Virus record (IMG/VR): IMGVR_UViG_3300029805_000004
Reading direction: 5' to 3' (one strand)
From: a virus
DNA length: 48,759 nt
Below the pieces are notes generated by a model that had not been told where the DNA came from, made no database searches, and worked only from the letters and a program-made list of their open reading frames with translations. Positions 1-48,759 of this stretch are shown piece by piece. Position 1 is the first letter of the stretch. The number at the start of each line of letters is the position of its first letter. Made by a program: the position numbers and the translations under genes.

Positions 1-119
1 AATACAGCCGGGGTGAACTCAAGTGAAGATTGATTTGCCATTATTTATACCTCAGTAATTTTGACGTTTTGTGATACCAGACCGTAGCTGTCTTTCAGCT
101 TCATGCCAGTCTCACGACT
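1..119. repeat. Terminal direct repeat copy 1 (identical to 48641-48759); most likely a circular-assembly overlap
   Basis: Bases 1-119 (aatacagccggggtgaactc...catgccagtctcacgact) recur exactly at 48641-48759. The junction lies inside minus-strand coding sequence. Confidence 0.95.
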
Positions 120-1659: not shown

Positions 1660-1770
1660 TGTTGCTTGCTTTGGCTAGGTGATGAATAGCTGTCATCACT
1701 GAACGCTTCTTTCCGGGGAAGCTGCCACGGCCCCACTTACCGGGTGATATCGACGGAGGATATTATTAAA

Positions 1771-23763: not shown

Positions 23764-23970
23764 GTGATATCACCACGGGATATAGCGTCAGGCGGGTATC
23801 TTAATTCTCCTGTCAGTGTGGCGGCAAATGGTTACATAGCAGTAAGTGTGGATAGTGGCGGTGGTGGTGCGTATCCTGTGTTTGGTGCAGGTAGATTGCT
23901 GAAGCAGATCCAACAGGACGATGAAGAAATAATGGTAATACTAATGGCATTTATGGGGATGATTCGATGA
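23764..23970 (+). CDS. possible small protein (68 aa, GTG start)
   Basis: The only ORF filling this gap. ATGA-coupled to the giant gene. Weak RBS. Confidence 0.4.
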   Translation: MISPRDIASGGYLNSPVSVAANGYIAVSVDSGGGGAYPVFGAGRLLKQIQQDDEEIMVILMAFMGMIR

Positions 23971-29900: not shown

Positions 29901-31583
29901 AACACAGGTAACGAAGGTAACTTGCGGAAGATGCTACTCGGTGAAGGATGGGCCACTACGGATGAAGAAGTCAGCATTGAGAATCCTAAACTCCAAGCCG
30001 TGTTGCAGCACATGAGCACGTCAGATTGGGACTTGGTTGAACTGATATGGGAACAGATTGGATCACTTAAAGCAGACTTAGCAGCCATCCATAAACGGGC
30101 CACTGGTATCACCATGGATGAAGTGAAACCCGTGTCGTTCGTACAGGATGGTCGCACCATTAAGGGTGGGTATTACCCGGTTAAGTACGATGCCAACCGT
30201 AGCGAGAAAGCACGTCTTAACGAAGAGAAAGCAGATGAACAGGCCGTGTCCATGTTGACGGCGGGTGGCTTTGTGCAGCCTGTCGCACGTACAGGTGCAC
30301 GCATCAATCGTACTGAGTTCGTAGGTCCTATCAAGTTCAGCTTGGATGTGGTGCCTAACCATATTCAGGAAGTTATCCACTTCATTACTCACTATGATGC
30401 GATTAAACAGGTGAATAAATTAACGGGTGATCCACGCATTGCCGCTGCCATCAAAACAAAATTGGGACCAGCACAATACGCATTGCTTAAACCTTGGCTG
30501 AACGATGTGGCTAAAGATGGCAAGGAAGCACCTATCAAGTCAGGTCTTGAATCACTGGCCCGTAGGTTAAGGTTTGGTACTACATACGGTGTAATGGGCT
30601 TCAAGGCGTCCACAGGCTTAATTCAAATCGCCGGTATCTTTAACACCGCTGCTGAAGTGGGCGTGGTTAGAACACTACGCGCAGTACGCACCGTGTTGGG
30701 TAGCGAGAAGTCCATACGTGAGACTTGGGAATTTGCCAAGGCCAACAGCAAGGTGCTTGAACATCGTCAGCAAACTATGGATAGGGAAATCAAGAACGCA
30801 TTGATAAGCCTGCAATCCAAACGCGGTCCGCTGGCAGTGGTACAGGAAGCTGCCATGATGCACATCGCTTTGGTCCAAACGTACACCGTTGACTTACCAT
30901 CATGGTATGCCGCCTATGCGAAGGGCATGGATAAATTTGAAGGTGATGAACAGCGTGCTTTCCAGTATGCAGATTGGGTAGTTGAGAACGTGCAGGGTAG
31001 TGGTCTGACAAAAGATATGTCATCCATCATGCGCAGCAAATCTGAACTGTACCGATTAGGCACCATGTTCATGACGTTCTTCAGTTCATTGTATAACCAT
31101 AATGCTGACGTGAAGCGTGCGGTGCAGGCGGGTCAACTTAGCATCCCGGCAGCAGTCGGCAAGCTGATGTTGTTGTGGACATTACCCGCGCTATTTGAAA
31201 CAGTGATGCGCGAAGGGTGGGGTGATGAGGACGATGAAGAAAGTTTGTTAGAGCGCACATTAGTCGGCACAGCCATGATGCCAATCACCACGGTGCCGTT
31301 CTTTAATCAGGTAGCGAACGGGGTGATATCAGGCTACGGTTACTCAGCATCACCTGTATTTCCGCTGGTCGAAGGTGGCGTTGAAGCCACACGTGCGCTG
31401 GCTGAAGGTGGGGAATTGACCAAGTACAAAATCAAACAAGCAAGTAAGGCGGTGGGCATTGCTTTTGCCATACCGGGTGTAAATCAGGCATGGATCACCG
31501 GGGAACATTTGTACGACTATGCAGTAGAAGGTGAAGATTTATCAATGCGTTACCTGCTTGTCACAACTAATAAAGACAAGTAG
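23967..31583 (+). CDS. giant 2538-aa polyvalent-type virion protein with zincin HExxH module and hydrophobic C-terminal region
   Basis: Uninterrupted 7.6-kb ORF. HEFAH at aa 1303-1307 (nt 27873-27887), then HEQFARGFESY at aa 1375. VHDYFGH motif at aa 432-438. FIDEFQSDWHQQGRQEGY segment. LARRLRFG at about aa 2197-2204, followed by hydrophobic segments. Confidence 0.8.
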   Translation: MSLQDCLRKAGKAFNASDATVINENVEQLVSSGVERATAETQAVEQFLSQQTDELNDIATQAEELGATVAREDLTQPDYLADFTATSATDFHGRLSEAMSASTNALSVKIYDVSEYENMQLFLTDDGKAGFALEYDGGLISVFKHPDSSIDAALDVIVPAAIQAGATKLEAFDGFLTARYKEFGFVEVLRDDWNDNYAPAGWDKSVLGTPAVVAMELKGVAQYEYNEETIPFSVQHPVGVRRGDESLQPSDATPDQRRTTGRESDGSLNGLPREVGNFNAAASSKIAAVAENYVTQLGLEYSPPTNYATVDVERARRIAEAYEAMKHDPENPEVKEAYAALTEEVIAQYQAALDAGLKVEFINFERDGDPYAASPRMVTDDINNNNHMWVFSTRDGFGSSVEIDVSNNPLLAETDFVISGQKALVNDLFRVVHDYFGHAKEGVGFRAIGEENAWRIHSAMFSPLARQALTTETRGQNSWVNYGPHGEANQTATSDTVFADQKTGLLPQWVVDEGRIDQPIFNQDINPTAVRNALGLHSAVEQAVMDTDLQQWSKKAGNNNKQVKALDIKIAELQTTYKAEQAEFEAAMDRLEANPGNQEAIDNLEDKLSDTTVSNEISKLKFERSRIANNPLAPGVEIWSKISKTAGVKKEELTWLGLEEFLKVDPKGKFSRETVLNFVRANGVVVEETIGDQETSSRNELEWDSGTVWDEEEAYMHNVEDMMYEFDAGDDDTSYINIATFMDKWMHDNIDTVLANYKTSLPEGEFAELTELDTPGDQIVWLANHYPVNEDMRSEAREDFEEAATAAAREAYLDDPTYIHKATNVEDLYIFGSDDLGYDIRHGGWDNAKYMIDNQLHIDSLNETQIHAFHYAIEEGLLEQVEDVNVAKWGDYVMDGSWDNYREIKLILPDLGGQDFDYDMHFEDSNIVAFLRVDDRDLSTGTTREQKRTVEKEDFNEFDDPSRPRYGVKVTVDGKVYRSDYDTAEERDANFIPLSDAGGNQVDNVAKTFFIDEFQSDWHQQGRQEGYKFTESDRVEARAKAEVLKKEQQDNLDSLEEKYGEDWKWMSSHEERNVNVELGDKIRKLHEQADAVPNAPFKGDAWVNLGLKRAIIEAVDNGYESIAWPNSQVLVDRWSEMYRELYVNQYDRKMVKGIKKLTGQTPVQLDLEGNPYPTTSDVLNAFDLVPSSESGRFNLKLKSGHNTIEAIPVNDEGIASTGRSLGEVSKLTFSNEGHAVEFLKDVVKTESTQGYFIIPITDELRADIKNDGLTLFQKQSGEARGYYDPTNVLIRLNEAANPSTFIHEFAHFMYDMEQKLKGPNLNAINNWYHGNAEDIAAEASEHYGHLISGFEVDQYLDNGTTGDVEIDTAILVATHEQFARGFESYVMEGKAPSMELRNVFRVLARMLTAVYKAITGGLSTPNVTDDMRQVFDRLIATEEQIAASEARDRAAPLFTDAAMAGMTEEQFQKYQEQARKATDKSNETLRDKVMKELTRVQQKWWGDERDDIIDEQEEILRTEPVYVARARLRSGDDLKLDYVSTIEIMGVKNLMGIVPMRGLTAKGGLGTHPDEAAKVYGFETGDQLIEALMTEPKLQDKAEANADAEMIERHGDIMNDGTLEKLADDMVRNEQRGTLLLTEIKALSKGQNVPLIDKQTIKALAAENIGKLALKDIRPDRYRKAEIHSAQEAAIALSKGDQVAALRAKTQQVMNFYLWREARDAQLTGGKVATYMARFKKKSLRERIGKAGNNYLENIDRILERFEFRKSVSFKKHAEARDSLQAWVDQQGSESDMIALSTEVLDETYARHWREIPIDELVGIQESIQSIENSAKALNNIIINEEKLTYEQTITRMLNQMGQLKDKVFPQYKDSVDNGGVRRWTENFLTEQVKIPWMMRWLDNGEEVGIMHQTIMQPMNNAYDAEVRMWDRVGKVVMQAINGRSKDDVKRHQQEISIPEIANTETKLEGKLLGHQIIAVALNTGNEGNLRKMLLGEGWATTDEEVSIENPKLQAVLQHMSTSDWDLVELIWEQIGSLKADLAAIHKRATGITMDEVKPVSFVQDGRTIKGGYYPVKYDANRSEKARLNEEKADEQAVSMLTAGGFVQPVARTGARINRTEFVGPIKFSLDVVPNHIQEVIHFITHYDAIKQVNKLTGDPRIAAAIKTKLGPAQYALLKPWLNDVAKDGKEAPIKSGLESLARRLRFGTTYGVMGFKASTGLIQIAGIFNTAAEVGVVRTLRAVRTVLGSEKSIRETWEFAKANSKVLEHRQQTMDREIKNALISLQSKRGPLAVVQEAAMMHIALVQTYTVDLPSWYAAYAKGMDKFEGDEQRAFQYADWVVENVQGSGLTKDMSSIMRSKSELYRLGTMFMTFFSSLYNHNADVKRAVQAGQLSIPAAVGKLMLLWTLPALFETVMREGWGDEDDEESLLERTLVGTAMMPITTVPFFNQVANGVISGYGYSASPVFPLVEGGVEATRALAEGGELTKYKIKQASKAVGIAFAIPGVNQAWITGEHLYDYAVEGEDLSMRYLLVTTNKDK

Positions 31584-31612: not shown

Positions 31613-34600
31613 ATGACTGTCAACACGACTAATATTGTTTCAGGCCCGTATACCGGCAACGGTGTGACCACTCAATTCAGTTATGGCTTCAGGGTTGACG
31701 ATAAAACGCAACTCGTTGTCTATGAAACCGATGACTTAGGTGTTGAAAGCGTGTTGGTCGTTGACGTTGACTACACGGTTAATAACGTGGGCGATGATGC
31801 TGGTGGCACGATTGACCGTATCGCAGGCGCGTTGCCTACCGACTACACGTGGTATATCCGTTCTAATTATCTGCATCTTCAGCTAACCGCGTTCGCCTCA
31901 CAGGGTGGATTCTTTCCAGACGTTCATGAAGCTGCGATGGATTTGCTGACGTTCTTATCCCAACAACAAGAGGACCGTATTGCACGCGCAATGCGATTCA
32001 ACGATTCATATTCAGGCGGTGCAGATCCAGAACTACCTGTACCTGAAGCCGACAAAGTATTGGTCTGGTCCTCGGATGCCTTAAACATCATCAACGGACC
32101 GAGTGAAGGTACGTTCATGGGTTGGGCTGACGCAGCAATCGCAGCAGCAGCAGCGGCGGTGATCAGTGCCGACGCAGCAGCCGCCAGCGCAGTAGCAGCA
32201 GACTTGAGTAAGATTGCCGCCGCGTTGAGTGAGACTAACGCAGGTGACGCAGCCAATGCAGCAATAGCAGCAGCAGCAGCAGCGGCGATAGATAAAGCAG
32301 CAGCAGCCGTCAGCGCAGCAGCAGCATTAGTCAGTCAAGGTGCTGCGTCAGACAGTGAGGCAGCAGCAGCAGCCAGTGCAGCAGCAGCCGCGATAGACCA
32401 GCTTGCAGCAGCAGCCAGTGCAGCAGCAGCATTAGTCAGTGAAGGTCTAGCAGAATATTGGGCCGGGGAAGCACAGACCGCTGCTGGTGCAAATGAAAAG
32501 ATTGCCGCACGTAACGCAGTACAAAACCAAGACGCAGTAAGCCAAGGTTTAGCACAACGGTCTGGTATGAGTTCAACTATCTACACAGGTAACGGTACAA
32601 GCCAAAGTATTATTACTGGCGTTGATATGTCCAGCGGCGATTTTGGTGGCTTTAACTGGATTAAAAATAGGGATGCTGCAATATCTCACGCCTTGACTGA
32701 TTCAGTCAGGGGCGACTTTAGGTTAGAGAGTGACACAACCGCCGCAGAGTCAGCCACTACAGCGGTAGCGCTAACGTCAACAGGGTTTGACTTGGTCACT
32801 GCAAGCAACAGATACAACCAAAATAGTGTTGATTATGTAGCTTGGTCATTCCAAACCAATAAGAAAGCGTCACGTAATATAGCGATATACCCTGAACAAT
32901 TTGATAATGCGGTATGGGCAAAATCGGCGGGCATAGTGGTTACACCTAACGCACAAATCGCACCTAATGGCTTTATGACAGCAGATGAATTGGCACATGA
33001 CGGAGTGAACAATCGCGCCGTAGTGCAATCACCCACAACCTTAAAGGCTAACACCACCTATACTTTTTCAATCTATTTAAAAATAATCTCCGGTAGTTTT
33101 ACCGAGAATAGTAAATGTCAATTAGCAATTTATGGCAGTGGCCTTGTAGCTACATCATCGGTGATTATTGGTGACGCACTTAACGGCGATTCTGAATGGC
33201 AGAGATTTGAAGCAACAGCGACAACAAACGGCGCACCGTCAGTAGCTAATTTCAGCATAAGGTGTGATGAGTTAGTCACCCTTGCTGAGTGGGGCGCACA
33301 GATTGAAGAAGGTAGCGCGGCAACCGATTATCAAAACGCAGAAACCAATCACGGCAAGCCTTACGAGTGTCACTACAATACTGAAATGGGCTTTAGTATT
33401 GTCGGCTATGAAGGTGATGAAGTCGCAGGCCATGAGATACCGCATCATCTAGGTGGCGAACCTGAATTAACAATCTATAAAAATAGAGAGAGCGTTTATT
33501 CTTGGATAGTAAAAGGGGCAATGTTTCAGGACGATGAGTTCTTATTCCTGAACGCCACTAATGCGCTGGCTACAGGTTATGTCAGTTCGCAAGATGATAC
33601 GACTTTAACCGTGGACGATACGGAGGAGTTAAATGAAGCAGGCATAAATATCATCGCCTACAACTTCCGTTCTATCGCGGGCGTATCAAAAATAGGCAAG
33701 TACATCGGCACAGCGGCAACGGGTAATTATGTCGATTGCGGCTTTATTCCGCGCTTTGTGATGTTGAAAACGCTTGATTCTGCTGGTGGATGGGCGATGT
33801 ATGACACTGCTAGGGGTATAGACCAAGTAGTAAATGCAGAGAGCAGTGACGCTGAAACTACTAACGTCAAGATTGAATTGACCGAGAATGGTTTTGTGCT
33901 TATTGGTACGTCATACAATGCACTTGACCAACAATATTTATTCATAACTTTTGCTGAAACTGACAGCGATGCCAACAAGTCATGGACGGATTACGACTAC
34001 GCCGTTGATAAAGACGTTTTAGTTATTGAGCAAGATACCTTGGTGAGCTTTGCTAATGGCTTCTCAGAAACAGGCCAAGTCGATACGCAATTCAATGTCG
34101 GCAGTGGCGTGACCTACAGCGAGAAAGGCGATGAGCTGGTAACTAATGGCACGTTTGATACTGATACCGATTGGAATAAAGGCGCAGGCTGGTCTATTGG
34201 TTCTGGTGTTGCAACCTCGGATGGTGCTAATGGAAACCAAGCGCTCAATCAAATTGTCAACCTTGTTGAAGGCGATACTTACCAAGTCTCTTTTGAGGTT
34301 ACTGCCTATACTGCTGGTTTATTACAACTAGAGTTGATTGCTACGACAACCGTAGCCGCAATAAATGTCAATGCTACTGGCGTGTATACCGTTACTTATG
34401 TTGCCGAAGCTGACACCTCTATGATAGTTGTTTTTAGAAGCAATGCTAGCTCTCCTTTTGCTGGCGGTGTTGATAACGTATCGGTCAAAGTAGTAGTCAG
34501 CACACCTAAGAAACTCTACCTGTTCATGGACAAGACCGGCTTGCTTGGTTCAACTGAGTTCAGACCTTTGGTTGGCCTGTCACGTGACGAGGCCGATTTT

Positions 34601-36007
34601 TGGGGTGTTGAGTCACCGCTTGACCCTAGCCTTAGAACAGCGGCGCATCACTTTGATTATGAAAGTAGTACAGGTGTGGCGAGTGCCAGCATTGAAGAAT
34701 CCAATGCCGTAGCTTGGGAGGCGGTAGCTGAACATGCGAATGAAATAGTGGCAGACCGCCGCTGGTTGGCATTAACTAATACGCTATGTTGGTGGCAGTA
34801 CAAAGGTACTGAGAAACGCATCTTAAAATCATGGCGTATACGTGCGGCTAATATAGGTCGCTTACCACAGCGGTTTACCATTGAAGGTAGTAATGACGGG
34901 CTGAATTGGACAGCGATTGATTCAACTTATACTAATAGCGACTTCAATATCGGGGGCAGTAATCTTTGGGGCGACTTAGAAGATACGTCAGCCAATACAA
35001 CGGCTTACCTTTACCATCGGATAAACATTACCGCTAATGGCAGTGACCCTTCATTAACAGGGTTTGCCAGCATGGAGTTCAACACCGAATTGCCGTCCGA
35101 CTATTACCTAATCCCACAGGGTGAAATGTTTGCCTATCGTGGTGATGAAGTGGTGGTTAATGGCACGTTTGATGTTAATACAGACGGTTGGAGTCCTAAA
35201 GATGGTGACGCTGAATTAACCGTAGTAAATCAAACCCTGCGCATCACTAACGGTGCGGCAAATGGGGCTTGGGCTAATCAGGCATTAACAGGTTTAATCG
35301 TTGGTGAGACTTACGAGGGTAGCGTACAAGGTGTCGGCGGCGATGCAGGCGCATCACGATTTACTTGTGGTAGTTCTGTAGGTGGCAGTGACTATTCAGG
35401 GTCGGGTGCTGATAATCTATTTGGCCTTGATGGAAAAACTTACACGTTTAGATTTGTAGCAGTAGCCACAACAGCTTGGTTTAGAGTGTCCAACGCTACG
35501 GCACTTCTTGGTGCTTACTATGACTACGACAACATCACCGTCAAACAGGTCGGCGTACAAATTGAACGCACCTACCTTGCTGAGTTCACAACCGACAGCG
35601 ATGGCGATGTAAGTTCATTCAAAAACCTTACGCCAGCCAAGCAGTACGAAACTGAAATGGAAGTGCTGAAAACCTTAACTGTGCGGGGTGAGATTCACAA
35701 TCCGCAAGTGGCGACAGCATGGGGTGATGTTGATGGTACGGTAGCACCACCGCTGGTAAGTGTTGAGCATAATATAGCGGCAATTGTCGGCTTAGACGCA
35801 GGTAGTTATTATGTTGAGTTTAACGAACCTATGGACACTAAAAGCTATGTGGTGGTGGCGACAATAGTCAGCCTTAATACCAACCATAACAGGATTGTTA
35901 AAACAGGTAATAAGACTGTCAGGGGGTTTGAATTGTTGGCGCAAACCACAGGAAGCGTACCGGCTGATGCCGTCCTATCATTTGCAGTATTTGGAGGGAA
36001 AGACTAA
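31613..36007 (+). CDS. 1464-aa receptor-binding tail fibre (Ala-rich coiled region, repeated YTGNG/GF domains, CBM-like jelly rolls, discoidin-like domain)
   Basis: N-terminus SGPYTGNGVTTQFSYGFRV is typical of podoviral fibres. Ala-rich region at nt ~32125-32490. Two GDE(L/V)V.NGTFD...DN(V/I)(S/T)VK modules. WRIRAANIGRLPQRFTIEGSNDGLNWTAID is discoidin-like. Confidence 0.75.
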   Translation: MTVNTTNIVSGPYTGNGVTTQFSYGFRVDDKTQLVVYETDDLGVESVLVVDVDYTVNNVGDDAGGTIDRIAGALPTDYTWYIRSNYLHLQLTAFASQGGFFPDVHEAAMDLLTFLSQQQEDRIARAMRFNDSYSGGADPELPVPEADKVLVWSSDALNIINGPSEGTFMGWADAAIAAAAAAVISADAAAASAVAADLSKIAAALSETNAGDAANAAIAAAAAAAIDKAAAAVSAAAALVSQGAASDSEAAAAASAAAAAIDQLAAAASAAAALVSEGLAEYWAGEAQTAAGANEKIAARNAVQNQDAVSQGLAQRSGMSSTIYTGNGTSQSIITGVDMSSGDFGGFNWIKNRDAAISHALTDSVRGDFRLESDTTAAESATTAVALTSTGFDLVTASNRYNQNSVDYVAWSFQTNKKASRNIAIYPEQFDNAVWAKSAGIVVTPNAQIAPNGFMTADELAHDGVNNRAVVQSPTTLKANTTYTFSIYLKIISGSFTENSKCQLAIYGSGLVATSSVIIGDALNGDSEWQRFEATATTNGAPSVANFSIRCDELVTLAEWGAQIEEGSAATDYQNAETNHGKPYECHYNTEMGFSIVGYEGDEVAGHEIPHHLGGEPELTIYKNRESVYSWIVKGAMFQDDEFLFLNATNALATGYVSSQDDTTLTVDDTEELNEAGINIIAYNFRSIAGVSKIGKYIGTAATGNYVDCGFIPRFVMLKTLDSAGGWAMYDTARGIDQVVNAESSDAETTNVKIELTENGFVLIGTSYNALDQQYLFITFAETDSDANKSWTDYDYAVDKDVLVIEQDTLVSFANGFSETGQVDTQFNVGSGVTYSEKGDELVTNGTFDTDTDWNKGAGWSIGSGVATSDGANGNQALNQIVNLVEGDTYQVSFEVTAYTAGLLQLELIATTTVAAINVNATGVYTVTYVAEADTSMIVVFRSNASSPFAGGVDNVSVKVVVSTPKKLYLFMDKTGLLGSTEFRPLVGLSRDEADFWGVESPLDPSLRTAAHHFDYESSTGVASASIEESNAVAWEAVAEHANEIVADRRWLALTNTLCWWQYKGTEKRILKSWRIRAANIGRLPQRFTIEGSNDGLNWTAIDSTYTNSDFNIGGSNLWGDLEDTSANTTAYLYHRINITANGSDPSLTGFASMEFNTELPSDYYLIPQGEMFAYRGDEVVVNGTFDVNTDGWSPKDGDAELTVVNQTLRITNGAANGAWANQALTGLIVGETYEGSVQGVGGDAGASRFTCGSSVGGSDYSGSGADNLFGLDGKTYTFRFVAVATTAWFRVSNATALLGAYYDYDNITVKQVGVQIERTYLAEFTTDSDGDVSSFKNLTPAKQYETEMEVLKTLTVRGEIHNPQVATAWGDVDGTVAPPLVSVEHNIAAIVGLDAGSYYVEFNEPMDTKSYVVVATIVSLNTNHNRIVKTGNKTVRGFELLAQTTGSVPADAVLSFAVFGGKD

Positions 36008-37481: not shown

Positions 37482-37820
37482 ATGGCTTCACCTGAAGAGT
37501 GCCTTACGTTTAAGCAGCAGCTTAATGATCTGACAACTCATATAGAAAAAAGGTACACCGCTGTGCATGAACACATACGTGAATTGCGTGAAGATTTCAG
37601 TGACCATCTTGAGATTCAGGAAGATCGTCATCGTGAGAACATGGCGTCACGTGCTCATAACACCAAGGCCATTGAGACTTTGACGGACAACACGAAGGGT
37701 ATGGTCGATGCGTGGAAAACGATTGCCAACTTGGTTAAGTTTGTTGTGGTTATCGCAACCGTGTTGGGTTCAACAGCCGCTATCCATACCGCGCTGCAAC
37801 ACTTCAATCTGATTACATGA
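37482..37820 (+). CDS. coiled-coil protein with C-terminal TM anchor (112 aa), last gene of the rightward arm
   Basis: AAGGA lies 6 nt before ATG 37482; the track start 37377 overlaps the endolysin. C-terminal LVKFVVVIATVLGSTAAIHTAL. Confidence 0.55.
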   Translation: MASPEECLTFKQQLNDLTTHIEKRYTAVHEHIRELREDFSDHLEIQEDRHRENMASRAHNTKAIETLTDNTKGMVDAWKTIANLVKFVVVIATVLGSTAAIHTALQHFNLIT

Positions 37821-39294
37821 AGGTTAGTTCAGCACTGGCCTGACCATCCCGGTAACGCTGGATAGAATCCTTCAATCCTTTCTCATCGTCAGCCTTACGC
37901 ATGATGGCGTCAGCGACAGCCATATCCAGTGAGTCATTGACTAAAATTCTAATGATGCTGACCGGGTTGGATTGACCGTTGCGATCTAATCGTCCGTTCA
38001 TTTGCAGGTACAATTCCAGTGACCAGTTCAGGCCAAACCAGACGATGATAGATCCACTGTCTTGCAGTCCATCAATACCATGGCCCATGCTGGCGGGATG
38101 ACCTATCAACAATTTGATTTTCCCCGCGTTCCAATTATCAATTATCTTCGCGGTGTGACTACTCTTCTCAGCCGTCAGGTTCACAGGTTTGTACTTCTTG
38201 AACCGGGTCATGATACGTTCAGCGTCAGCCTTGTACGCATACGATAACAGCACCGGCTGACCACCCACTTCTTCAAGGATATCTTCAAGCGCATCCAGCT
38301 TGGCGTCATGCAGTTTTTCCCACGTGCCATCCAAGTCGGTGTACGGTGAACCGTTACATATCTGCAAACACTTATTGCCTACGCTGGCCTTGGTGAATAC
38401 TTCAAGCTCGGTCCCGCTGTCCAACTCGGTGAACATCTTGGCTTCCATTTCTTCATAGTGCTTCCGGGCCTTGGCTGGTAGGTCCACCATGATGTTAGTC
38501 TCACGTACAGGCGGCAGGTCCAAGTAATCTTTACTGTCCATCTTCACGGTGATGTCAGATATCTTGTGCTCAATCCACTGCTTACCGATGGGTGTCACTG
38601 AGTAGCCGTAGCCATTGTAGTTACCAGCGAAGTAAGCATCCCGGTAGTGGGTGACAAATTTCCCCAAGCGTTCACCGCCATCAATGGCAAGGTACTGACC
38701 AAACAAATCTATGTAGCCGTTGCTTGCCGGGGTCCCGGTTAAGCCGGTGCTGTAGGCAAACAGGTCCATGATTTTACGCCAGCCAATTACCTTGACCATG
38801 GTCGTTTCTTCAGTGCGCTTGTCTTTGACTTCACGCTTGCCACCTTTCATACGCATGGACTCAGAATTTTTTAGCTTGGTGACTTCATCATAGACTGCCA
38901 TTTGAAATGGGATGGGCTTACCCTGCTTGATGTAATAGGTCTGCAAGACTTCCACCAACCAGTTCATATTCTCATAGTTGCACAGGTAGATATCTGCTTC
39001 CCGGAACAACTTACGCTTGCGGGTCGCTGGTGTACCACTGAGCACCATGCAGCGAAGATGCTCAGTATGGGTCCACTTCTTTGATTCGCGTTCCCATACG
39101 GCATTGATGACACGCTTGGGGCCAAAGATTAAGGTCTTATGTACCAGACCTGCACGCATCCTATCGACGATGGTGGTCAGGGTGATGACAGTTTTGCCAA
39201 GGCCAACACCTAACCACAACATTGAATCCGGGTGGATCAGTTGATGGTTGATGGCTGCTTTCTGGTAGTCGTATAACTCTTGTGGTCTAAGCAT
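37813..39294 (-). CDS. SNF2-family helicase
   Basis: GVGLGKTV (motif I), YDEVTKL (II), LTGTPASNGYIDLF (III) and QMNGRLDRNGQ (VI). Confidence 0.85.
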   Translation of the reverse strand: MLRPQELYDYQKAAINHQLIHPDSMLWLGVGLGKTVITLTTIVDRMRAGLVHKTLIFGPKRVINAVWERESKKWTHTEHLRCMVLSGTPATRKRKLFREADIYLCNYENMNWLVEVLQTYYIKQGKPIPFQMAVYDEVTKLKNSESMRMKGGKREVKDKRTEETTMVKVIGWRKIMDLFAYSTGLTGTPASNGYIDLFGQYLAIDGGERLGKFVTHYRDAYFAGNYNGYGYSVTPIGKQWIEHKISDITVKMDSKDYLDLPPVRETNIMVDLPAKARKHYEEMEAKMFTELDSGTELEVFTKASVGNKCLQICNGSPYTDLDGTWEKLHDAKLDALEDILEEVGGQPVLLSYAYKADAERIMTRFKKYKPVNLTAEKSSHTAKIIDNWNAGKIKLLIGHPASMGHGIDGLQDSGSIIVWFGLNWSLELYLQMNGRLDRNGQSNPVSIIRILVNDSLDMAVADAIMRKADDEKGLKDSIQRYRDGQASAELTFM

Positions 39295-39850
39295 TTTTCA
39301 TTTCATCCCGGTTGACCCATGATAAACGTGTGACACTATCTTCACTGAAGGGGTTGAACACCACGAAGCAGGACCCGCGTGTGTTGCCTGATATCTCATC
39401 ACCTATCTCAATGTGCTTGTCAGGCTTACCCTTCTTACCTTTGACGGTGAAATCTTCAGGTGCGATGAATGATAAGCGACCATTGATGAAGATGATTTCA
39501 TGCGCTTTGCCAAAGATATATTCCCGGTACGCATCTTCACCATTAGGTGTGGGCAGCAGGAACACAGTAGCAAAACCCAGCAGTGATTCAGCATAGGCTT
39601 TTTCTAACCACGGCTTCACGTTTGAATAGGGTGGATTGCACCAGCCGGTATCACCCAGCGTATGCCAGTCTTGCTTCAGGCCATCCATCGCTTCATCAAA
39701 ATGTAACATGCACTTGCTTGATATGACGTCAGCGGCAAGGTCGATGTTAAATTTATACGTGCCATCAATCCAGTCGAATACATATTGCGGTGTGCGCAGG
39801 CGGTCCCGCAATGACAATGGGGTGTTGCTTGATTGCTGCTGACTAGCCAT
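39287..39850 (-). CDS. dam: phage-type DNA N6-adenine methyltransferase (Dam family)
   Basis: TPQYVFDWI...FNIDLAA...WCNPPYS...FINGRLSF. ATG 39850 lies 1 nt after the upstream stop and is preferred over 39883. Confidence 0.8.
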   Translation of the reverse strand: MASQQQSSNTPLSLRDRLRTPQYVFDWIDGTYKFNIDLAADVISSKCMLHFDEAMDGLKQDWHTLGDTGWCNPPYSNVKPWLEKAYAESLLGFATVFLLPTPNGEDAYREYIFGKAHEIIFINGRLSFIAPEDFTVKGKKGKPDKHIEIGDEISGNTRGSCFVVFNPFSEDSVTRLSWVNRDEMKNA

Positions 39851-39851
39851 A

Positions 39852-40064
39852 TTATCTTTCCCCATGCTGAAGTTTATCGACATACGCAGCCTTGGTCCTA
39901 CCTACTGCTCGGCATGAGAAGCACCGTACTGTCGAGTAGTCTGAGGACTCGCCACCATATCGAACGAAGGTGCTGTTATTCCACTTGTACGTTAGGATGA
40001 ACCAGTTCCGTTTCGTCACCGGCTTCTTCCTTTCTGGACATTTACAATTAAAAGCATTAGCCAT
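39852..40064 (-). CDS. 70-aa Cys-containing (zinc-ribbon-like) protein
   Basis: CKCP...CFSC. Overlaps the VRR-NUC stop by 8 nt. Confidence 0.55.
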   Translation of the reverse strand: MANAFNCKCPERKKPVTKRNWFILTYKWNNSTFVRYGGESSDYSTVRCFSCRAVGRTKAAYVDKLQHGER

Positions 40065-40338
40065 TTTTTAATCCTTCAATAAACTTATCGACACCGAGCT
40101 TGCCAGCCACCCATGTGACGTTCGCACCGGCTGCACGAAGCCTGCTCATTTCACGCATTTGATGATCTTCAGGTACGTTACCCAGCGTCTTGACTTCAAC
40201 GAACCAGACGTCACCAAGGATAACTATCTGGTCGGTGACGCCGGGGTGTCCGGGGCTGGTCCACTTGCGAGTGATGCCACCGAGCTTTTCAACTTCAGTA
40301 GACAGATATCTTTCAACCGTGTTTTCAGCTTTACCCAT
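40057..40338 (-). CDS. VRR-NUC domain nuclease
   Basis: ERYL...GGITRKWTSPGHPGVTDQIVIL...FVEVKT...Q...LRAAG is the PD-(D/E)xK VRR-NUC pattern. ATG 40338 with a GGGGA RBS is preferred over TTG 40359. Confidence 0.75.
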   Translation of the reverse strand: MGKAENTVERYLSTEVEKLGGITRKWTSPGHPGVTDQIVILGDVWFVEVKTLGNVPEDHQMREMSRLRAAGANVTWVAGKLGVDKFIEGLKNG

Positions 40339-41257
40339 TGTCAAATTCCCCGGCTGCAAGTTTGTCTTTTATGGTATCCCAATGCTCATGCAATCCACCG
40401 AGCGCATTAGATACATCACTCTCTTCAGCCTCAACATCTTCCCAAATACTATGGTCAATGCAACTGCGAATTTCATCGGTGATTAAATCGGTCATCACAT
40501 CTAAGTCCAAGGCGTCTAACTCCCAAGAACTGTGACCATGTTCTGCGATGTAATCTTGAGCGCGACTGTCTGTTAATTTAGTCGGGTTAGGTGGTGGATC
40601 ATACTGGTCAATCTGGTCACGGTTTAATGCGATGCGACGGACTTCAATTTCACCGGGGCCAGCACGACTTAACAACTGAAGTCTGTCAGCATTGTCGCGG
40701 GTCATATCAATACCACTTGGGTCATGATCACCAAGGTGAATAAGAACACAGTCCTTACCTTCAGCAATCTTATCTTCAAAGCGTTGACCCGCACGCCATG
40801 CTTCCGATGCTGACAGATATCCTTTGCAACTCATGTGCGGTACAAGCCATGGTTCACACGCTTTAGCGATGACGTTACCGAGTGCTTCTTTCTCGACCCA
40901 CACTTCAACATAGTAGGATTGACGTTCCCACTGGTCAAAGCGTATGTAGTTTGGAAGGTTGGCAATTAAACCGTACTCATCTTCCCGCGTCCAGAACGTG
41001 TTGTGTTCCCGGTTGCGATCTTCAATAGCTTCCCATGACACCATGCCTGCAAGTCGTGCCTTGGTGATGAGCGTGCCTAAATTTTTATAACTGCGCTCAG
41101 TATTAGGAATGATGTCTCGCGCTACGAACTGGTAGTAAAGCTGACGCAGTGTGAGCGTGAATCCTTTGATGGAATACTCAGCGATTATAGCGTTAGCTGC
41201 ATCAACAAGGTCCTGACTCTTTTGTGTGGGACTCCAATCTTTATAATGTATTTTCAT
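40331..41257 (-). CDS. Topo VI subunit A / Spo11-like protein (5Y-CAP plus Toprim), 'Mini-A'-type
   Basis: LTLRQLYYQFV (Arg and Tyr of the 5Y-CAP), VWVEKEAL (Toprim Glu) and LGDHDPSG (DxD). ATG 41257 is ATGA-coupled to the upstream mini-ORF; an alternative start is 41272. Confidence 0.65.
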   Translation of the reverse strand: MKIHYKDWSPTQKSQDLVDAANAIIAEYSIKGFTLTLRQLYYQFVARDIIPNTERSYKNLGTLITKARLAGMVSWEAIEDRNREHNTFWTREDEYGLIANLPNYIRFDQWERQSYYVEVWVEKEALGNVIAKACEPWLVPHMSCKGYLSASEAWRAGQRFEDKIAEGKDCVLIHLGDHDPSGIDMTRDNADRLQLLSRAGPGEIEVRRIALNRDQIDQYDPPPNPTKLTDSRAQDYIAEHGHSSWELDALDLDVMTDLITDEIRSCIDHSIWEDVEAEESDVSNALGGLHEHWDTIKDKLAAGEFDNG

Positions 41258-41406
41258 GTCACCCGGTCCCATACATGATTCAAAATGTAAGACTCATTTT
41301 CTGACAGTGGACCAGTCAGGTTTTCCACAAACTTTAATTCCCAATCCGTCAGGTCATGCTTACGGTTGATGCAGTCATCAATCATCACTTCATGTTCTTC
41401 GTTCAC
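41254..41406 (-). CDS. 50-aa mini-protein (GTG start)
   Basis: AGGAG lies 6 nt before GTG 41406, just after the polymerase stop. Sequence MNEEHEVMIDDCINRKHDLTDWELKFVENLTGPLSENESYILNHVWDRVT. Confidence 0.45.
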   Translation of the reverse strand: MNEEHEVMIDDCINRKHDLTDWELKFVENLTGPLSENESYILNHVWDRVT

Positions 41407-41407
41407 T

Positions 41408-43408
41408 TCACTCTCCTCTTAATGGCAACACTAACTTGTTCGCCTTATTGATGTAGTAATCGTAGTTGATACTTAACCCGTTGAGCATTTGGATATCATT
41501 GCAGATGGTCACAAGGAAGCCAGCTTCAACGGCACCGCGCCGGGTTGAGTAGACACTTTTGTTCTTGGTGTGAACACGTTCATCCCATACACCCTGTCCT
41601 ATCTCATCAATTACTTCCTGATAGATAGCGTCAGTCAGACCGTTGGCACGCTTAAACTGCCCTTCAGGTCCCGCTGGCGGCATAATTTTATTCAAAGGTT
41701 TACCGTCAGTGGTGACGACATACCGCACAATGTTTGGGACCGGCACATCAAGACCTTCAACCGACAGGGCCAGTGCTGCTGACCGTGGCACCTTGGTGTT
41801 GATCATGAAGTCACTGATATCAGAATGGTTACGGATGAAATCTTCAACGTCCTGACCATCGACCAGCGCAGCTTCAGCAGCCTTGGCAATTACCTGACTG
41901 GAAAAATTTTGATTCCAGTCGAAGTCATCACCGTAGCAGTACGTGCCTTTGCGCTTGAGTCCACCACCCTCATACTCAGCGATGTAGTTGTTGACGTTCA
42001 GGATCATCATGCGTGAGTACAGCACTTCTTCCAGTTCTAATTGAGTGACACCTTCCCACCATCCACACACACTGCGTAGGTGCTCAAGATATCCGCGTGG
42101 ACACTTGACGGTCATGCCATCGGTGTTGACTTGGATCATGGTCAGGCCGGGTATCTTAATCAGTTGTTCTGCCAGCATACATAGCATCAACTGACCGTTG
42201 ACCGTCGTCCCCATGGTGTACTTCGTATCATAGAAAGGACTGTACTTTGAATTGCTATCCCCGTACACCGAGTTCAGGGCCAACTTGAGCATCGCGTTCT
42301 CAGGTGTACCCTTCTTATATTTGCGACGTTCTTCATACACTTCAGTGTAGATATCACAGAAAATTTCAGGCAGATGTTCAGGCTTCATTCTGGTTTTCAT
42401 CGGTATGCGCGGGTAGTAACTTGCCACATCAACGTCCACTAATTGATACTCTTCATCACTGGTGACGGTGGTAGCGGTGATGCTGCCATGGATACCACCA
42501 AGACCAAAGTCATATTGGAAGCCATCCACTATGCAGTTGATATCTTCAAACACACCCTTAGTTTCAGTGATGCGCTGGGACCTGAACCATGCCACCATGC
42601 GTTGAAATTCTGGATGCTCAAGTTGCACGTAGTCGAAGATGACATCACCAAGGTCTACATACTCACGCTTGGTCTGACGGATGACGCGCTTGCCTGATGT
42701 CATATCGTAGCAGCATCCCGGCACCGCTTCTTCCAGCTTCATGATGAAGAAGTCCTTGCCTATCTTGCCGTCGTTATGATTGATGAAATTTTTGCCATAC
42801 TTCTCGGTCAGTTCTTCCCGGAATTTTATGGCGGGTAATGTTTCAAAGTAGAACATTTCAGTGGCGTTGATGTCATACCAATTATAGACAATCAAGACAT
42901 CCATTTGTGCGTCAGTCAGGATGGTGCCGACTGGAAACGGTAGGTCCTCAACGCGGTCCATACCCATGTTAATTTCTAAAGTTTTCAGGCTGGTGGCCCG
43001 ACTGACATTATCAAAGTGGTGGATCTTAAACAGGTCCACTTGCTCAACGATGCAGTCATGGTCCCGGATGATATGTCTGAAGCGTTGGTTGTAGTGACCA
43101 TTGATGATCGACATCGCTTTTTCATATATCTCAGACACCGCTACAGCGATACCTTTTTCCATGATGTAATGCAGGACCGGGTAATCAAAACCGATTGAAT
43201 TGAAGCCGACGAAGCGACTTTTATAATCACTTATCGCTTCTACGAAATCCATCAACTGCACCACGTCATTGCGTCGCGTGCTGATTTCAAATAGGTATTG
43301 CTGACCAGTCTTAGGATTGCGAAAGGCAGCGGTGTAGATGTTGGGGTATGTTTCTTCATCCCATATCCAGTCACGCGGGTCAGCTATATCGGGGTACATG
43401 AAGTTCAT
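41408..43408 (-). CDS. family B DNA polymerase with 3'-5' exonuclease domain
   Basis: Exo I WDEET, Exo II FNSIGFDYPVL, Exo III YNWYDINA. Pol motif A is DVASYYP, motif B is KLALNSVYG, and motif C is VNTDGM. Confidence 0.85.
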   Translation of the reverse strand: MNFMYPDIADPRDWIWDEETYPNIYTAAFRNPKTGQQYLFEISTRRNDVVQLMDFVEAISDYKSRFVGFNSIGFDYPVLHYIMEKGIAVAVSEIYEKAMSIINGHYNQRFRHIIRDHDCIVEQVDLFKIHHFDNVSRATSLKTLEINMGMDRVEDLPFPVGTILTDAQMDVLIVYNWYDINATEMFYFETLPAIKFREELTEKYGKNFINHNDGKIGKDFFIMKLEEAVPGCCYDMTSGKRVIRQTKREYVDLGDVIFDYVQLEHPEFQRMVAWFRSQRITETKGVFEDINCIVDGFQYDFGLGGIHGSITATTVTSDEEYQLVDVDVASYYPRIPMKTRMKPEHLPEIFCDIYTEVYEERRKYKKGTPENAMLKLALNSVYGDSNSKYSPFYDTKYTMGTTVNGQLMLCMLAEQLIKIPGLTMIQVNTDGMTVKCPRGYLEHLRSVCGWWEGVTQLELEEVLYSRMMILNVNNYIAEYEGGGLKRKGTYCYGDDFDWNQNFSSQVIAKAAEAALVDGQDVEDFIRNHSDISDFMINTKVPRSAALALSVEGLDVPVPNIVRYVVTTDGKPLNKIMPPAGPEGQFKRANGLTDAIYQEVIDEIGQGVWDERVHTKNKSVYSTRRGAVEAGFLVTICNDIQMLNGLSINYDYYINKANKLVLPLRGE

Positions 43409-48502: not shown

Positions 48503-48681
48503 TACTCACCACCTTTGAACACGTTTTCAAGGTGCTCAATTAAATACTTAGCATAGCCAACGACTAGCTCAACATCGTCAAACATGAATGTTTCATCACC
48601 ACGCTCGACGCACTTTTTATACTCAACTTTCAACCGGGCCAATACAGCCGGGGTGAACTCAAGTGAAGATTGATTTGCCAT
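48502..48681 (-). CDS. hypothetical early protein (59 aa) spanning the repeat boundary
   Basis: Below the track cutoff. Sequence MANQSSLEFTPAVLARLKVEYKKCVERGDETFMFDDVELVVGYAKYLIEHLENVFKGGE. The same ATG appears at 39-41, which shows the two ends are contiguous. Confidence 0.5.
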   Translation of the reverse strand: MANQSSLEFTPAVLARLKVEYKKCVERGDETFMFDDVELVVGYAKYLIEHLENVFKGGE

Positions 48682-48759
48682 TATTTATACCTCAGTAATT
48701 TTGACGTTTTGTGATACCAGACCGTAGCTGTCTTTCAGCTTCATGCCAGTCTCACGACT
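48641..48759. repeat. Terminal direct repeat copy 2 (identical to 1-119)
   Basis: Exact 119-bp identity with the window start. Confidence 0.95.

Follow-up and report, generated by a model that had tools for sequence, protein, structure and literature searches.

Introduction

Mini-A proteins were described by Takahashi et al. (2019/2020, NAR Genom Bioinform; PMC7671362) as stand-alone homologues of the type IIB topoisomerase A subunit, ~300 aa in length, that lack the N-terminal portion of the 5Y-CAP domain through which Top6B is bound, carry an R-x-x-Y/F-Y motif, a Toprim glutamate and a DxDxxG motif, have no B subunit encoded nearby and reside in a virus or provirus. The sequence xWELDAL in the T2BI box, for which the published consensus is R/K-x-E-x-x-A/S, was said to separate Mini-A from Topo VI and Topo VIII (PMC7671362). 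The family is not new, having been named in 2019 and being routinely annotated since. Clustering at 50% identity divides it into ~11,000 clusters, and 84 records of cultured phages contain a member, among them tractable phages of Pseudomonas (such as NP1/PaMx25), Salmonella (SPN19/Chi-like), Xylella and Roseobacter (RDJL Phi 1).

A known relative is Top6A of archaeal, bacterial and plant Topo VI (1D3Y, 2ZBK, 9O8P/9O0G), which presents, in the same order as Mini-A, a winged helix with R-x-x-x-Y, a Toprim domain with its Glu and DxD, and a T2BI glutamate. In M. jannaschii Top6A, E340 forms hydrogen bonds with R99 and Y103, and in M. mazei Top6A the R102–E342 clasp restrains cleavage, with the E342Q mutant being hyper-cleaving. 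Spo11 is likewise an A-subunit homologue with the same catalytic tyrosine and Toprim residues, used for breakage rather than topology, and mutations in its T2BI box affect break formation in yeast. Spo11 still acts together with a partner resembling Top6B and with numerous accessory proteins; for mouse SPO11, poor dimerisation in isolation has been predicted. Topo VIII, a plasmid-borne fused B–A type IIB topoisomerase, shares with Mini-A its confinement to mobile elements but has a GHKL/transducer region in the same polypeptide or in a split gene. JetD/MksG of Wadjet and GajA of Gabija are dimeric Toprim DNA-cleaving modules related to Top6A that act as hydrolytic effectors in ATPase-containing defence complexes.

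Here we analyse a Mini-A gene in the virus record IMGVR_UViG_3300029805_000004, the whole 48,759-nt stretch of which is referred to as the window. The original prediction, made from the nucleotide sequence, held that the gene encodes a Top6A/Spo11-like protein in a replication module that lacks a B subunit, that the function of the family was untested and that the setting suggested programmed DNA breakage. In reviews and preprints through 2026 the function is still given as unknown, and none of them reports a biochemical activity for any Mini-A.

Results

The Mini-A gene and its start codon

The Mini-A coding sequence occupies positions 40331..41257 of the minus strand and encodes a stand-alone type IIB topoisomerase A-subunit homologue of 308 aa; the strand had been left unstated in the original prediction. 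The open reading frame extends over 40331..41272 on the minus strand, and reading the plus strand over this interval gives a translation riddled with stops. The ATG at 41257, which gives a product with the N-terminus MKIHYKD, is preferred to an alternative in-frame ATG at 41272, which would add five residues, because homologues also open with MKI, because the database gene call P0001 (308 aa) is 100% identical to this product, and because this ATG shares the tetranucleotide ATGA with the stop codon of a 50-aa ORF upstream. At least 8,000 homologues were found, the best 120 of which are 59–70% identical to the window protein, and the gene is therefore far beyond chance. Promoter and terminator scans of 37.5–48.8 kb yielded nothing exceeding shuffled expectation.

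Catalytic motifs and residue conservation

All of the motifs on which the original prediction was based are present in the 308-aa protein. In AF2 models, residues 12–83 (41009..41224, minus strand) form an N-terminal winged-helix, 5Y-CAP-like domain with the topology α1-β-α2-α3-β and a pLDDT >90 over most of the domain, and both R38 and Y42 are located on α2. These two residues belong to the motif T36-L-R38-Q-L-Y41-Y42 (41132..41152, minus strand), which aligns on K-R-E-A-Y-Y of Top6A. Within the longer string LTLRQLYYQFV, the codons of R38 and Y42 lie at 41144–41146 and 41132–41134, respectively; Y42 is the candidate for the catalytic tyrosine, preceded at a distance of four residues by R38, a conserved arginine. 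The Toprim domain (residues 112–232; 40562..40924, minus strand), supported by hhalign of this half against Top6A, contains the acidic motif VWVEKEAL (40880..40903, minus strand), in which E122 (codon 40892–40894) is predicted to bind metal or to act as general base, and the DxDxxG motif LGDHDPSG (D177, D179 and G182; 40712..40735, minus strand), which aligns on D-G-D-P-Y-G of Top6A. The T2BI box carries the Mini-A signature WELDAL (residues 245–250 in S-W245-E-L-D-A-L250; 40508..40525, minus strand), and E246 is the predicted 'clasp' glutamate. This signature was absent from the motif list of the original prediction. The protein is fully covered by winged helix and Toprim, with no ATPase or zinc-binding domain.

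Among 77 diverse Mini-A sequences with identities down to 25%, R38, Y42, E122, K123, D177, G182 and E246 are invariant (77/77), D179 and A249 are near-invariant (76/77 each), and Y41 is variable (Y/F/H/W). In the homologue P0229, an intein sits one residue ahead of the Toprim glutamate equivalent to E122. Strict invariance and the position of the intein together favour a working active site, and the catalytic residues of the window protein are intact, with all type IIB cleavage-religation residues kept.

Relationship to Top6A

Profile-profile comparison (hhalign) with 57 Top6A sequences gave a Prob of 79% and an E of 1.6e-5 over 244 co-linear columns, pairing RQLYY with REAYY and GDHDPSG with DGDPYG, whereas reversed controls scored 13–16 against 46 and were not significant (E 0.3–0.7). 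The full-length Top6A set was recovered from genome loci; a query with the 81-aa 1D3Y fragment gave short Top6A fragments only. The Toprim half alone matched Top6A with a Prob of 88% and an E of 2.8e-6, and the winged-helix/5Y-CAP half alone was not significant (E 0.054). When the N-terminal domain was predicted alone and compared with the PDB by Foldseek, the best E was 1.8, and 2ZBK_A appeared only at rank 21. The 5Y-CAP assignment thus draws on co-linearity, motif match and residue invariance, and we do not claim it as structurally proven.

With the full-length model, the three best Foldseek matches in the PDB were all M. mazei Top6A (prob 0.97–0.99, 305 columns), with marginal E values (1e-3 to 8e-3), a low TM (0.28–0.34) and an r.m.s.d. 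of 16–18 Å, which probably reflects a different pose of the two domains relative to each other. A Foldseek comparison with BFVD was not informative. A PDB search with a profile of divergent Mini-A members ranked Top6A (1D3Y) first with both catalytic motifs aligned, while searches with the single protein and with a narrow profile returned only noise. Top6A is therefore the best PDB match by fold as well as by profile, and the clasp residues are conserved between the two. The expected order of 5Y-CAP followed by Toprim is thus supported by hhalign, by Foldseek and by a match to PHROG 6247 ('DNA topoisomerase') at an E of 3e-104.

Pfam, NCBIfam and PADLOC gave no match to the window protein, with TP6A_N, the family to which the original prediction had pointed, and PF21180 both silent. 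Across six divergent Mini-A members, PF21180 was touched by one and DUF2399 by two (E 1.6e-4). An alternative Toprim family, which would have undermined the original prediction, was not assigned by any of these three resources; an OLD-family nuclease (including GajA) and a DnaG-type primase were rejected, given the lack of an ATPase domain, of a zinc-binding domain and of any Pfam, NCBIfam or PADLOC match.

The T2BI box requires separate consideration. WELDAL was not placed by hhalign on the R-A-E-Q-Q-A-L box of Top6A; its Trp was paired instead with an upstream Trp across a length difference of ~20 residues. The equation of E246 with the clasp glutamate of Top6A therefore rests on the published alignment and on the E-x-x-A pattern.

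Membership of the Mini-A family

The window gene is almost certainly a typical Mini-A member. The protein has 308 aa, and hhalign places its residue 7 opposite residue 35 of a Top6A of 334 aa, over HMM columns 111–397 of 410. It is ~50–60 residues shorter than Top6A, without the Top6B-binding N-terminus and with a shorter stretch ahead of the T2BI box. R38-Q-L-Y41-Y42 corresponds to R-x-x-Y/F-Y, E122 followed by D177-H-D179-P-S-G182 to the Toprim motifs, and S-W245-E-L-D-A-L250 to xWELDAL. The carrier is a closed viral genome with T7-type podoviral structural genes and no GHKL gene at Pfam sensitivity. A record named 'Topo Mini-A' is homologous to the window protein (E 3e-19), in line with the original prediction, which had referred to Mini-A as a group described bioinformatically. 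In size, motifs, the missing Top6B-binding part, viral location and the lack of a nearby B subunit, the protein resembles the described Mini-A and PHROG 6247 members; nothing essential differs, and what is particular here is the carrier, a T7-type podovirus that is uncultured and has the gene in a PolB/VRR-NUC/Dam/SNF2 operon. When the region was compared with cultured phages by megablast, none proved closely related.

The distribution of the homologues is broader than first described. The original paper called Mini-A virus-associated (PMC7671362), but close relatives of the window protein also occur on plasmids, including a 66% identical homologue from Vibrio, whose plasmid neighbourhood consists of umuDC, methylases and tiny ORFs. 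On an 8.8-kb archaeal plasmid, Mini-A is the only recognisable DNA enzyme. One phage record labels a homologue 'DNA binding protein'.

Genomic setting

The first and last 119 nt of the window are identical, indicating that the genome is closed and complete, and its T7-type structural genes identify it as that of a podovirus. The Mini-A gene lies within a chain of minus-strand genes that begins upstream with a divergent family-B DNA polymerase (PolB; 41408..43408), followed by the 50-aa ORF (41254..41406), whose stop overlaps the Mini-A start and which other phages do not conserve beside their Mini-A genes. Downstream, a 93-aa VRR-NUC-type PD-(D/E)XK nuclease (40057..40338) has an ATG that overlaps the Mini-A stop by 8 nt and matches the stand-alone nuclease structure 4QBN (E 1e-14). 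Then come an orphan Dam-family N6-adenine methyltransferase (39287..39883), which matches PF05869, and a SNF2-family helicase (37813..39294), the last gene of the overlapping chain. The labels given to these four neighbours in the original prediction hold, as does the translational chaining, to which we add two genes, the 50-aa ORF that separates polymerase from Mini-A and another of 70 aa that separates VRR-NUC from Dam. Neighbouring genes meet at a 1-nt gap, at one ATGA overlap and, in three cases, at overlaps of 8 nt. Nearby, the phage encodes a DUF2800 exonuclease and an SSB/annealase of the Gp2.5 type; it also encodes a primase-helicase.

Search for a partner

No GHKL ATPase or transducer was detected at Pfam sensitivity in the Mini-A protein or in the 44 ORFs scanned, none of which belongs to a HATPase or Topo-VIb family, in agreement with the original prediction. 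A Topo VI holoenzyme and Topo VIII are excluded on the same grounds. Across 80 IMG/VR loci, no neighbour of Mini-A was conserved and no family was present in more than 13 of the 80; the adjacent genes fall in no common cluster, which argues against a hidden 'Mini-B'. The small upstream ORF was also rejected for this part, since the 50-aa ORF, NP1 gp50 and SPN19 gp25 are mutually unrelated.

An Mre11/Rad50 (SbcCD-like) pair lies beside Mini-A in two loci (L093 and L094), and an SMC-like gene lies near Mini-A in a Bacteroides phage. Such Mre11/Rad50-like pairs fit an enzyme that makes breaks but are not general, and jackhmmer found none in the 80 IMG/VR loci, so that Mre11/Rad50 was dismissed as a general partner.

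Discussion

By analogy with the structures and biochemistry of Top6A, Mini-A would act as a homodimer in which one subunit supplies Y42 for the attack on DNA and the Toprim domain of its partner supplies the Mg site. The attack would produce a 5'-phosphotyrosyl link in the form of either a nick or a staggered double-strand break that could be resealed, and cleavage would need no ATP. In the resting protein, cleavage may be restrained by an R38–E246 clasp, to be released by substrate geometry, such as bent or supercoiled DNA, or by another protein. Since Mini-A lacks a Top6B (GHKL-transducer) subunit, ATP-gated strand passage in its known form is impossible. We consider covalent, tyrosine-mediated cleavage chemistry probable. 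The fuller account, in which a self-restrained homodimer carries out Mg-dependent, ATP-free cutting and rejoining on replicating phage DNA, is the best explanation that we have and lies just on the favourable side of even.

The co-translation of Mini-A with PolB, a resolvase-type VRR-NUC, Dam and SNF2, and the nearby SSB/annealase and exonuclease, make replicating phage DNA the likeliest target. In this context, Mini-A may introduce breaks, or resolve them, in the service of recombination-dependent replication or of the processing of concatemers, although a specific role of this kind is tentative and, on balance, doubtful. The programmed-breakage role put forward in the original prediction likewise derives from gene context, which is not conserved across the family; because the context varies, as in the Vibrio plasmid homologue, a replication-linked role may not apply family-wide. 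A bolder version, which we regard as unlikely, is that Mini-A makes breaks in the manner of Spo11, self-sufficiently and independently of ATP. As a clasp-restrained homodimer it would introduce double-strand breaks with covalently 5'-linked protein while phage or plasmid DNA replicates, and the DUF2800 exonuclease, Gp2.5-type SSB/annealase, VRR-NUC and SNF2 would process them, thereby seeding recombination-dependent replication. Mini-A would differ from Spo11 in that no partner was detected.

Other functions can be weighed against the same observations. That Mini-A initiates replication is the one hypothesis found in the literature, where it was put forward for skuldviruses because they have no other replication protein; the enzyme would nick a specific origin site and stay on the 5' end in the manner of an HUH Rep, starting rolling-circle or sigma-mode synthesis. 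The 8.8-kb archaeal plasmid with its single recognisable DNA enzyme fits such a role, as does the position of the gene after that of the DNA polymerase with just a 50-aa ORF between, but this phage already has a primase-helicase, PolB, SSB and exonuclease and would not need a nicking initiator, and the T2BI/clasp architecture with a Top6A-like dimer predicts paired cuts rather than one site-specific nick, which leaves initiation improbable here. A true topoisomerase, relaxing or decatenating replicating phage DNA either ATP-free or with a phage or host ATPase that has escaped recognition and takes the part of 'Mini-B', seems to us quite unlikely as well. The retained cleavage-religation residues and the very high full-length conservation (59–70% between unrelated elements) would suit such a multi-state enzyme, an SMC/Rad50-like ATPase adjoins Mini-A in some loci, and eukaryotic TOPOVIBL (PMC9665070) illustrates that B subunits can diverge past sequence detection. 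However, the Top6B-binding N-terminal segment is missing, the 80 loci have neither a conserved neighbour nor, by jackhmmer, an SbcC-like ATPase, and type II strand passage without an ATP-operated gate is unprecedented in the IIB family.

The remaining readings dispense with the covalent intermediate. Mini-A could cut DNA by hydrolysis, as a Toprim endonuclease of the JetD/MksG or GajA kind, degrading host or competitor DNA or acting in counter-defence, a reading prompted by the two of six divergent members that match DUF2399, a JetD-type Toprim, by the close homologue whose plasmid surroundings include umuDC, orphan methylases and numerous small ORFs, and by the orphan Dam two genes from Mini-A in the window. 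We judge it very improbable, as Mini-A, unlike JetD/MksG and GajA, retains the catalytic tyrosine and arginine, and R38 and Y42, invariant at the exact Top6A catalytic positions, would be superfluous for pure hydrolysis. JetD operates within the JetABC complex, genes for which are absent here; membership of Wadjet JetD/MksG was rejected because PADLOC gave no match even at E 10 and the window has no SMC or kleisin genes. That Mini-A has kept the fold and lost the chemistry, serving as a DNA-binding or architectural protein, would accord with the 'DNA binding protein' annotation of one phage homologue and with the lack of a reported activity, but is hardly credible given that the Tyr, the Arg, E122, D177 and the clasp Glu persist in 77/77 sequences and D179 in 76/77 down to 25% identity, and that one homologue has an intein at its Toprim Glu.

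Beyond the 2019 description, our analysis adds the strict invariance of the R38/E246 clasp, which leads to a gain-of-function prediction for E246Q, the lack of a conserved neighbour across 80 loci, and plasmid-borne close homologues. Within the Top6A/Spo11 superfamily, Mini-A stands out as the one branch that apparently works without any B subunit. Its function bears on how an A subunit is licensed to cut without an ATPase, which is relevant to the control of Spo11, on a possible viral, stand-alone origin of type IIB topoisomerases, and on which step of phage or plasmid DNA metabolism needs programmed protein-linked breaks; these questions are no more testable from this window than from the cultured phages that already carry Mini-A. 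If Mini-A does make breaks in the manner of Spo11, it would be a viral counterpart, and possibly an ancestor, of the meiotic double-strand break machinery and of type IIB topoisomerases.

Results

The gene at 40331–41257 (minus strand) encodes a typical member of a known family, Mini-A, that is already labelled by phage annotation pipelines; the original prediction of a stand-alone Top6A/Spo11-like protein is correct but not new. PHROG 6247 ('DNA topoisomerase') matches the protein end to end (E 3e-104), and at least 8000 homologues share words with it, the top 120 being 59–70% identical. An exhaustive profile search returned 10,970 clusters (50% identity) at E ≤ 1e-3 and 2,166 at E ≤ 1e-30. 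With tblastn, the gene was found in 84 cultured phage records, the majority annotated 'DNA topoisomerase', and carriers include Pseudomonas phages of the NP1/PaMx25 type, Xylella phages Sano and Salvo, Roseobacter phage RDJL Phi 1, Salmonella phage SPN19 and the archaeal virus HCIV-1. Takahashi et al. characterised Mini-A proteins by a size of ~300 aa, RxxY/FY, E plus DxDxxG and an xWELDAL T2BI signature, together with loss of the Top6B-binding N-terminus, lack of a B subunit and a viral location (PMC7671362). All of these features are found in the window protein, and its family identity is firm. The Pfam search proposed with the original prediction (TP6A_N, Toprim) returned no match for the protein, and neither did NCBIfam or PADLOC.

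The ORF spans 40331–41272 on the minus strand and gives 313 aa when counted from the first ATG, while the plus-strand translation over 40331–41257 is riddled with stops, placing the coding on the minus strand. A second ATG at 41257 yields a 308-aa protein (N-terminus MKIHYKD) and is the better start, because homologues begin MKI, because an identical database protein from a 48,759-bp contig (P0001) has 308 aa and because this ATG overlaps the stop of the upstream 50-aa ORF (ATGA). The three motifs of the prediction were all located in this translation: LTLRQLYYQFV (R38, Y42), VWVEKEAL (E122) and LGDHDPSG (D177, D179), in 308-aa numbering. A fourth, S-W-E-L-D-A-L at residues 244–250, was absent from its list.

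Some homologues have additional segments. DUF1643 is fused to the N-terminus of P0206, and P0130, P0142 and P0199 have C-terminal extensions of ~150 aa that end in very acidic tails and have no Pfam match. P0035 (415 aa) has a repeated Toprim segment, which either arose by tandem duplication or is an artefact of assembly.

Relationship to Top6A and Spo11

A confident AF2 model of Mini-A built from a 30-sequence alignment (pLDDT 83.9, pTM 0.76) had the M. mazei Topo VI A subunit as its top three PDB matches in Foldseek (9O8P_A, 9O0G_A and 9O0G_C; 305 columns, probability 0.97–0.99), but with E-values of only 1e-3 to 8e-3, TM scores of 0.28–0.34 and an r.m.s.d. of ~17 Å, which suggests that matching domains adopt a different relative pose in the model. 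When a profile of six divergent Mini-As (26–42% identity) was searched against the PDB, M. jannaschii Top6A (1D3Y) ranked first at E 0.41, with co-linear stretches that place TlRqlyY on TLREAYY and GDfdpSG on TDGDPYG. Among these six proteins, one touched PF21180 (TOP6A-Spo11 Toprim) and two touched DUF2399 (JetD Toprim).

Comparison by hhalign of 77 diverse Mini-As with 57 full-length Top6A proteins recovered from reference genomes gave a probability of 79% and an E-value of 1.6e-5 over 244 co-linear columns, with a score of 46 versus 13 and 16 for reversed-sequence controls. The Toprim half alone aligned at 88% probability (E 2.8e-6), whereas the N-terminal half alone was not significant (E 0.054), with RQLYY still falling on REAYY. 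Modelled separately by AF2, residues 1–113 adopt a winged-helix topology (a1-b-a2-a3-b) in which a2 carries R38 and Y42; Foldseek with this model returned nothing significant, and in its weak list of winged-helix proteins S. shibatae Top6A ranked 21st. These results support Toprim homology and an overall architecture relating Mini-A to Top6A/Spo11, while the 5Y-CAP assignment of the N-terminal half, the other part of the prediction, is plausible and in line with the literature.

Active site and clasp

Conservation was scored over the 77 Mini-As, whose identity to the window protein falls to 25%. R38, Y42, E122, K123, G146, S149, D177, G182 and E246 are invariant, and D179 and A249 are each present in 76 of the 77. 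Because position 41 varies (Y/F/H/W) and Y42 does not, Y42 is the candidate catalytic Tyr, in agreement with the predicted choice of the second Tyr in RQLYY. In the 653-aa homologue P0229, an intein of 361 residues (Hint plus LAGLIDADG homing endonuclease; residues 121–481) separates EVW from CEKDAL and lies one residue ahead of the Toprim catalytic Glu; this position lends independent support to the importance of the Glu site.

The T2BI box follows the consensus R/K-x-E-x-x-A/S, and the Glu of this box in M. jannaschii Top6A (E340) forms hydrogen bonds with R99 and with the catalytic tyrosine, Y103. In a cryo-EM study from 2026, the equivalent pair of M. mazei Topo VI, R102–E342, forms an 'electrostatic clasp' that holds Y106 apart from the Toprim acidic residues of the partner. 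In that study, E342Q was hyper-cleaving and clasp release was normally coupled to ATP-driven Top6B closure. Although it lacks Top6B, Mini-A retains the two residues of the clasp, and its Arg and Tyr have the same R(i)/Y(i+4) spacing; it may thus be a self-restrained Top6A-like homodimer released by a signal other than an ATPase. The T2BI boxes of Mini-A and Top6A were left unaligned by hhalign because Top6A has ~20 extra residues just ahead of the box.

Genome and operon

The first 119 nt of the window (1–119) are identical to the last 119 nt (48641–48759), which shows that it is a closed, complete genome; the identity represents either a circular assembly overlap or the short direct terminal repeat of a T7-type podovirus. 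The structural genes resemble those of T7-like podoviruses and encode a head-tail connector, a GP7 capsid, gp13/gp14-like proteins and the two terminase subunits. A Pfam scan of 44 ORFs (10 replication-module and 34 further ORFs) detected neither a HATPase/GHKL nor a Topo VI-B transducer family, and the predicted lack of a B subunit holds at Pfam sensitivity, which a more diverged B subunit would escape.

The scan also detected an LPD22 (large polyvalent protein) domain, in an ORF that the family table does not specify. Two giant structural ORFs lie on the plus strand at 23967–31583 (2538 aa) and 31613–36007 (1464 aa, with a long, Ala-rich, low-complexity N-terminal region), and a 286-aa protein at 303–1163 (minus strand; PHROG 4046) with a C-terminal DUF6011 motif is encoded near the primase-helicase gene.

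Mini-A sits within a chain of overlapping minus-strand genes (37813–43408). The chain begins with a divergent family-B DNA polymerase (41408–43408; PHROG 1252, weak Pol II and archaeal PolB matches), followed after a 1-nt gap by the 50-aa ORF that overlaps Mini-A. The end of Mini-A overlaps by 8 nt a 93-aa VRR-NUC-type nuclease (PDB 4QBN, E 1e-14), whose stop is overlapped by 8 nt by a 70-aa Cys-rich ORF (39852–40064; CKCP...C..C) that has no Pfam match and may be a zinc-ribbon protein. Dam (PF05869) follows, and its end overlaps by 8 nt the SNF2 helicase, the last gene. A Gp2.5/Enc34-type SSB and a DUF2800 PD-(D/E)XK exonuclease are encoded upstream on the same strand, and the primase-helicase (1744–4236) on the other. 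The recurring 8-nt start/stop overlaps (ATGGGTAA, ATGGCTAA and ATGCTTAG), together with the one ATGA overlap, constitute an unusually regular translational-coupling chain. Promoter and terminator scans gave nothing exceeding shuffled expectation.

Neighbourhoods in phages and plasmids

In cultured phages, the genes around Mini-A are in every case those of replication, recombination or nucleotide metabolism, yet their identity varies: RDJL Phi 1 has a DNA polymerase, NP1 a ligase and Sak4, and SPN19 ThyX. The small ORFs directly upstream are mutually unrelated, which rules them out as a conserved neighbour. BLAST clustering of 1631 ORFs within ±8 kb of Mini-A at 80 IMG/VR loci gave 13 loci as the maximum for any neighbour family (tyrosine integrase, 13; SNF2, 11; ResIII/DEAD helicase, 11; primase-helicase, 10; PolA, 8; DUF2800, 7; Enc34-type SSB, 5), and positions −2 to +2 were almost never occupied by the same family.

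At two metagenomic phage contigs (L093, 1285–4732; L094, 6396–9637), an SbcD/Mre11-like and SbcC/Rad50-like pair directly flanks Mini-A, an adjacency that is suggestive because of the way in which Spo11 adducts are removed. Such a pair was absent from all 80 IMG/VR loci by jackhmmer, and it was rejected as a family trait. Bacteroides phage C1_85S2P encodes a 'condensin/DNA repair protein' ~3 kb upstream of Mini-A.

Whereas the Mini-A of the 2019 paper is virus-associated, a 66%-identical homologue is found on 142 Vibrio contigs (loci L004–L007 include V. parahaemolyticus contigs) and on the ~96-kb V. campbellii plasmid pLMB96 (NZ_CP019298.1, 41552–42460). There it lies outside any phage replication module, within a long series of tiny ORFs on one strand that includes umuDC, MazE, BrxR-type WHD proteins, orphan Dcm and Dam methylases and integrases. 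Streptomyces plasmids commonly carry distant homologues (~25% identity; matches H42–H70, and locus NZ_CP029542.1, 531–1394), which lie mostly within a few percent of the record end on large plasmids and, in one linear plasmid of 45.8 kb, form the second gene from the end; one record holds two copies. This placement could reflect linear-replicon arms, linear phage-plasmids or a telomere-related role. With such varied neighbours and plasmid homologues, Mini-A behaves like a module that stands alone, moves horizontally and has no obligate genetic partner.

Discussion

The best-supported mechanism is that Mini-A would break and rejoin DNA through Tyr42 in an Mg-dependent, ATP-independent reaction, a chemistry predicted from the invariant residues. 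As a clasp-restrained homodimer, it would target replicating phage DNA, and in the window phage it would be co-expressed with the polymerase, a resolvase-type nuclease, Dam and SNF2. We infer this biological role from a genomic context that is not conserved.

There are four rival readings. Mini-A could be a nicking replication initiator, and the Asgard-virus papers, which state that its functions 'remain unknown', propose for it a possible role in the initiation of skuldvirus rolling-circle replication. It could also be a true topoisomerase that works with an unseen partner, a reading to be weighed with both the Pfam-level absence of Top6B and the varied neighbourhoods. Readings as a hydrolytic nuclease or a non-catalytic binder are to be set beside the invariant residues on which the predicted breakage-rejoining through Tyr42 is based.

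A literature search that included 2025–2026 work found no experimental characterisation of Mini-A, and a December 2024 review calls its role 'still an unexplored topic'. For work on the function of the Mini-A family, the cultured phages that carry the gene are better systems than the window phage.
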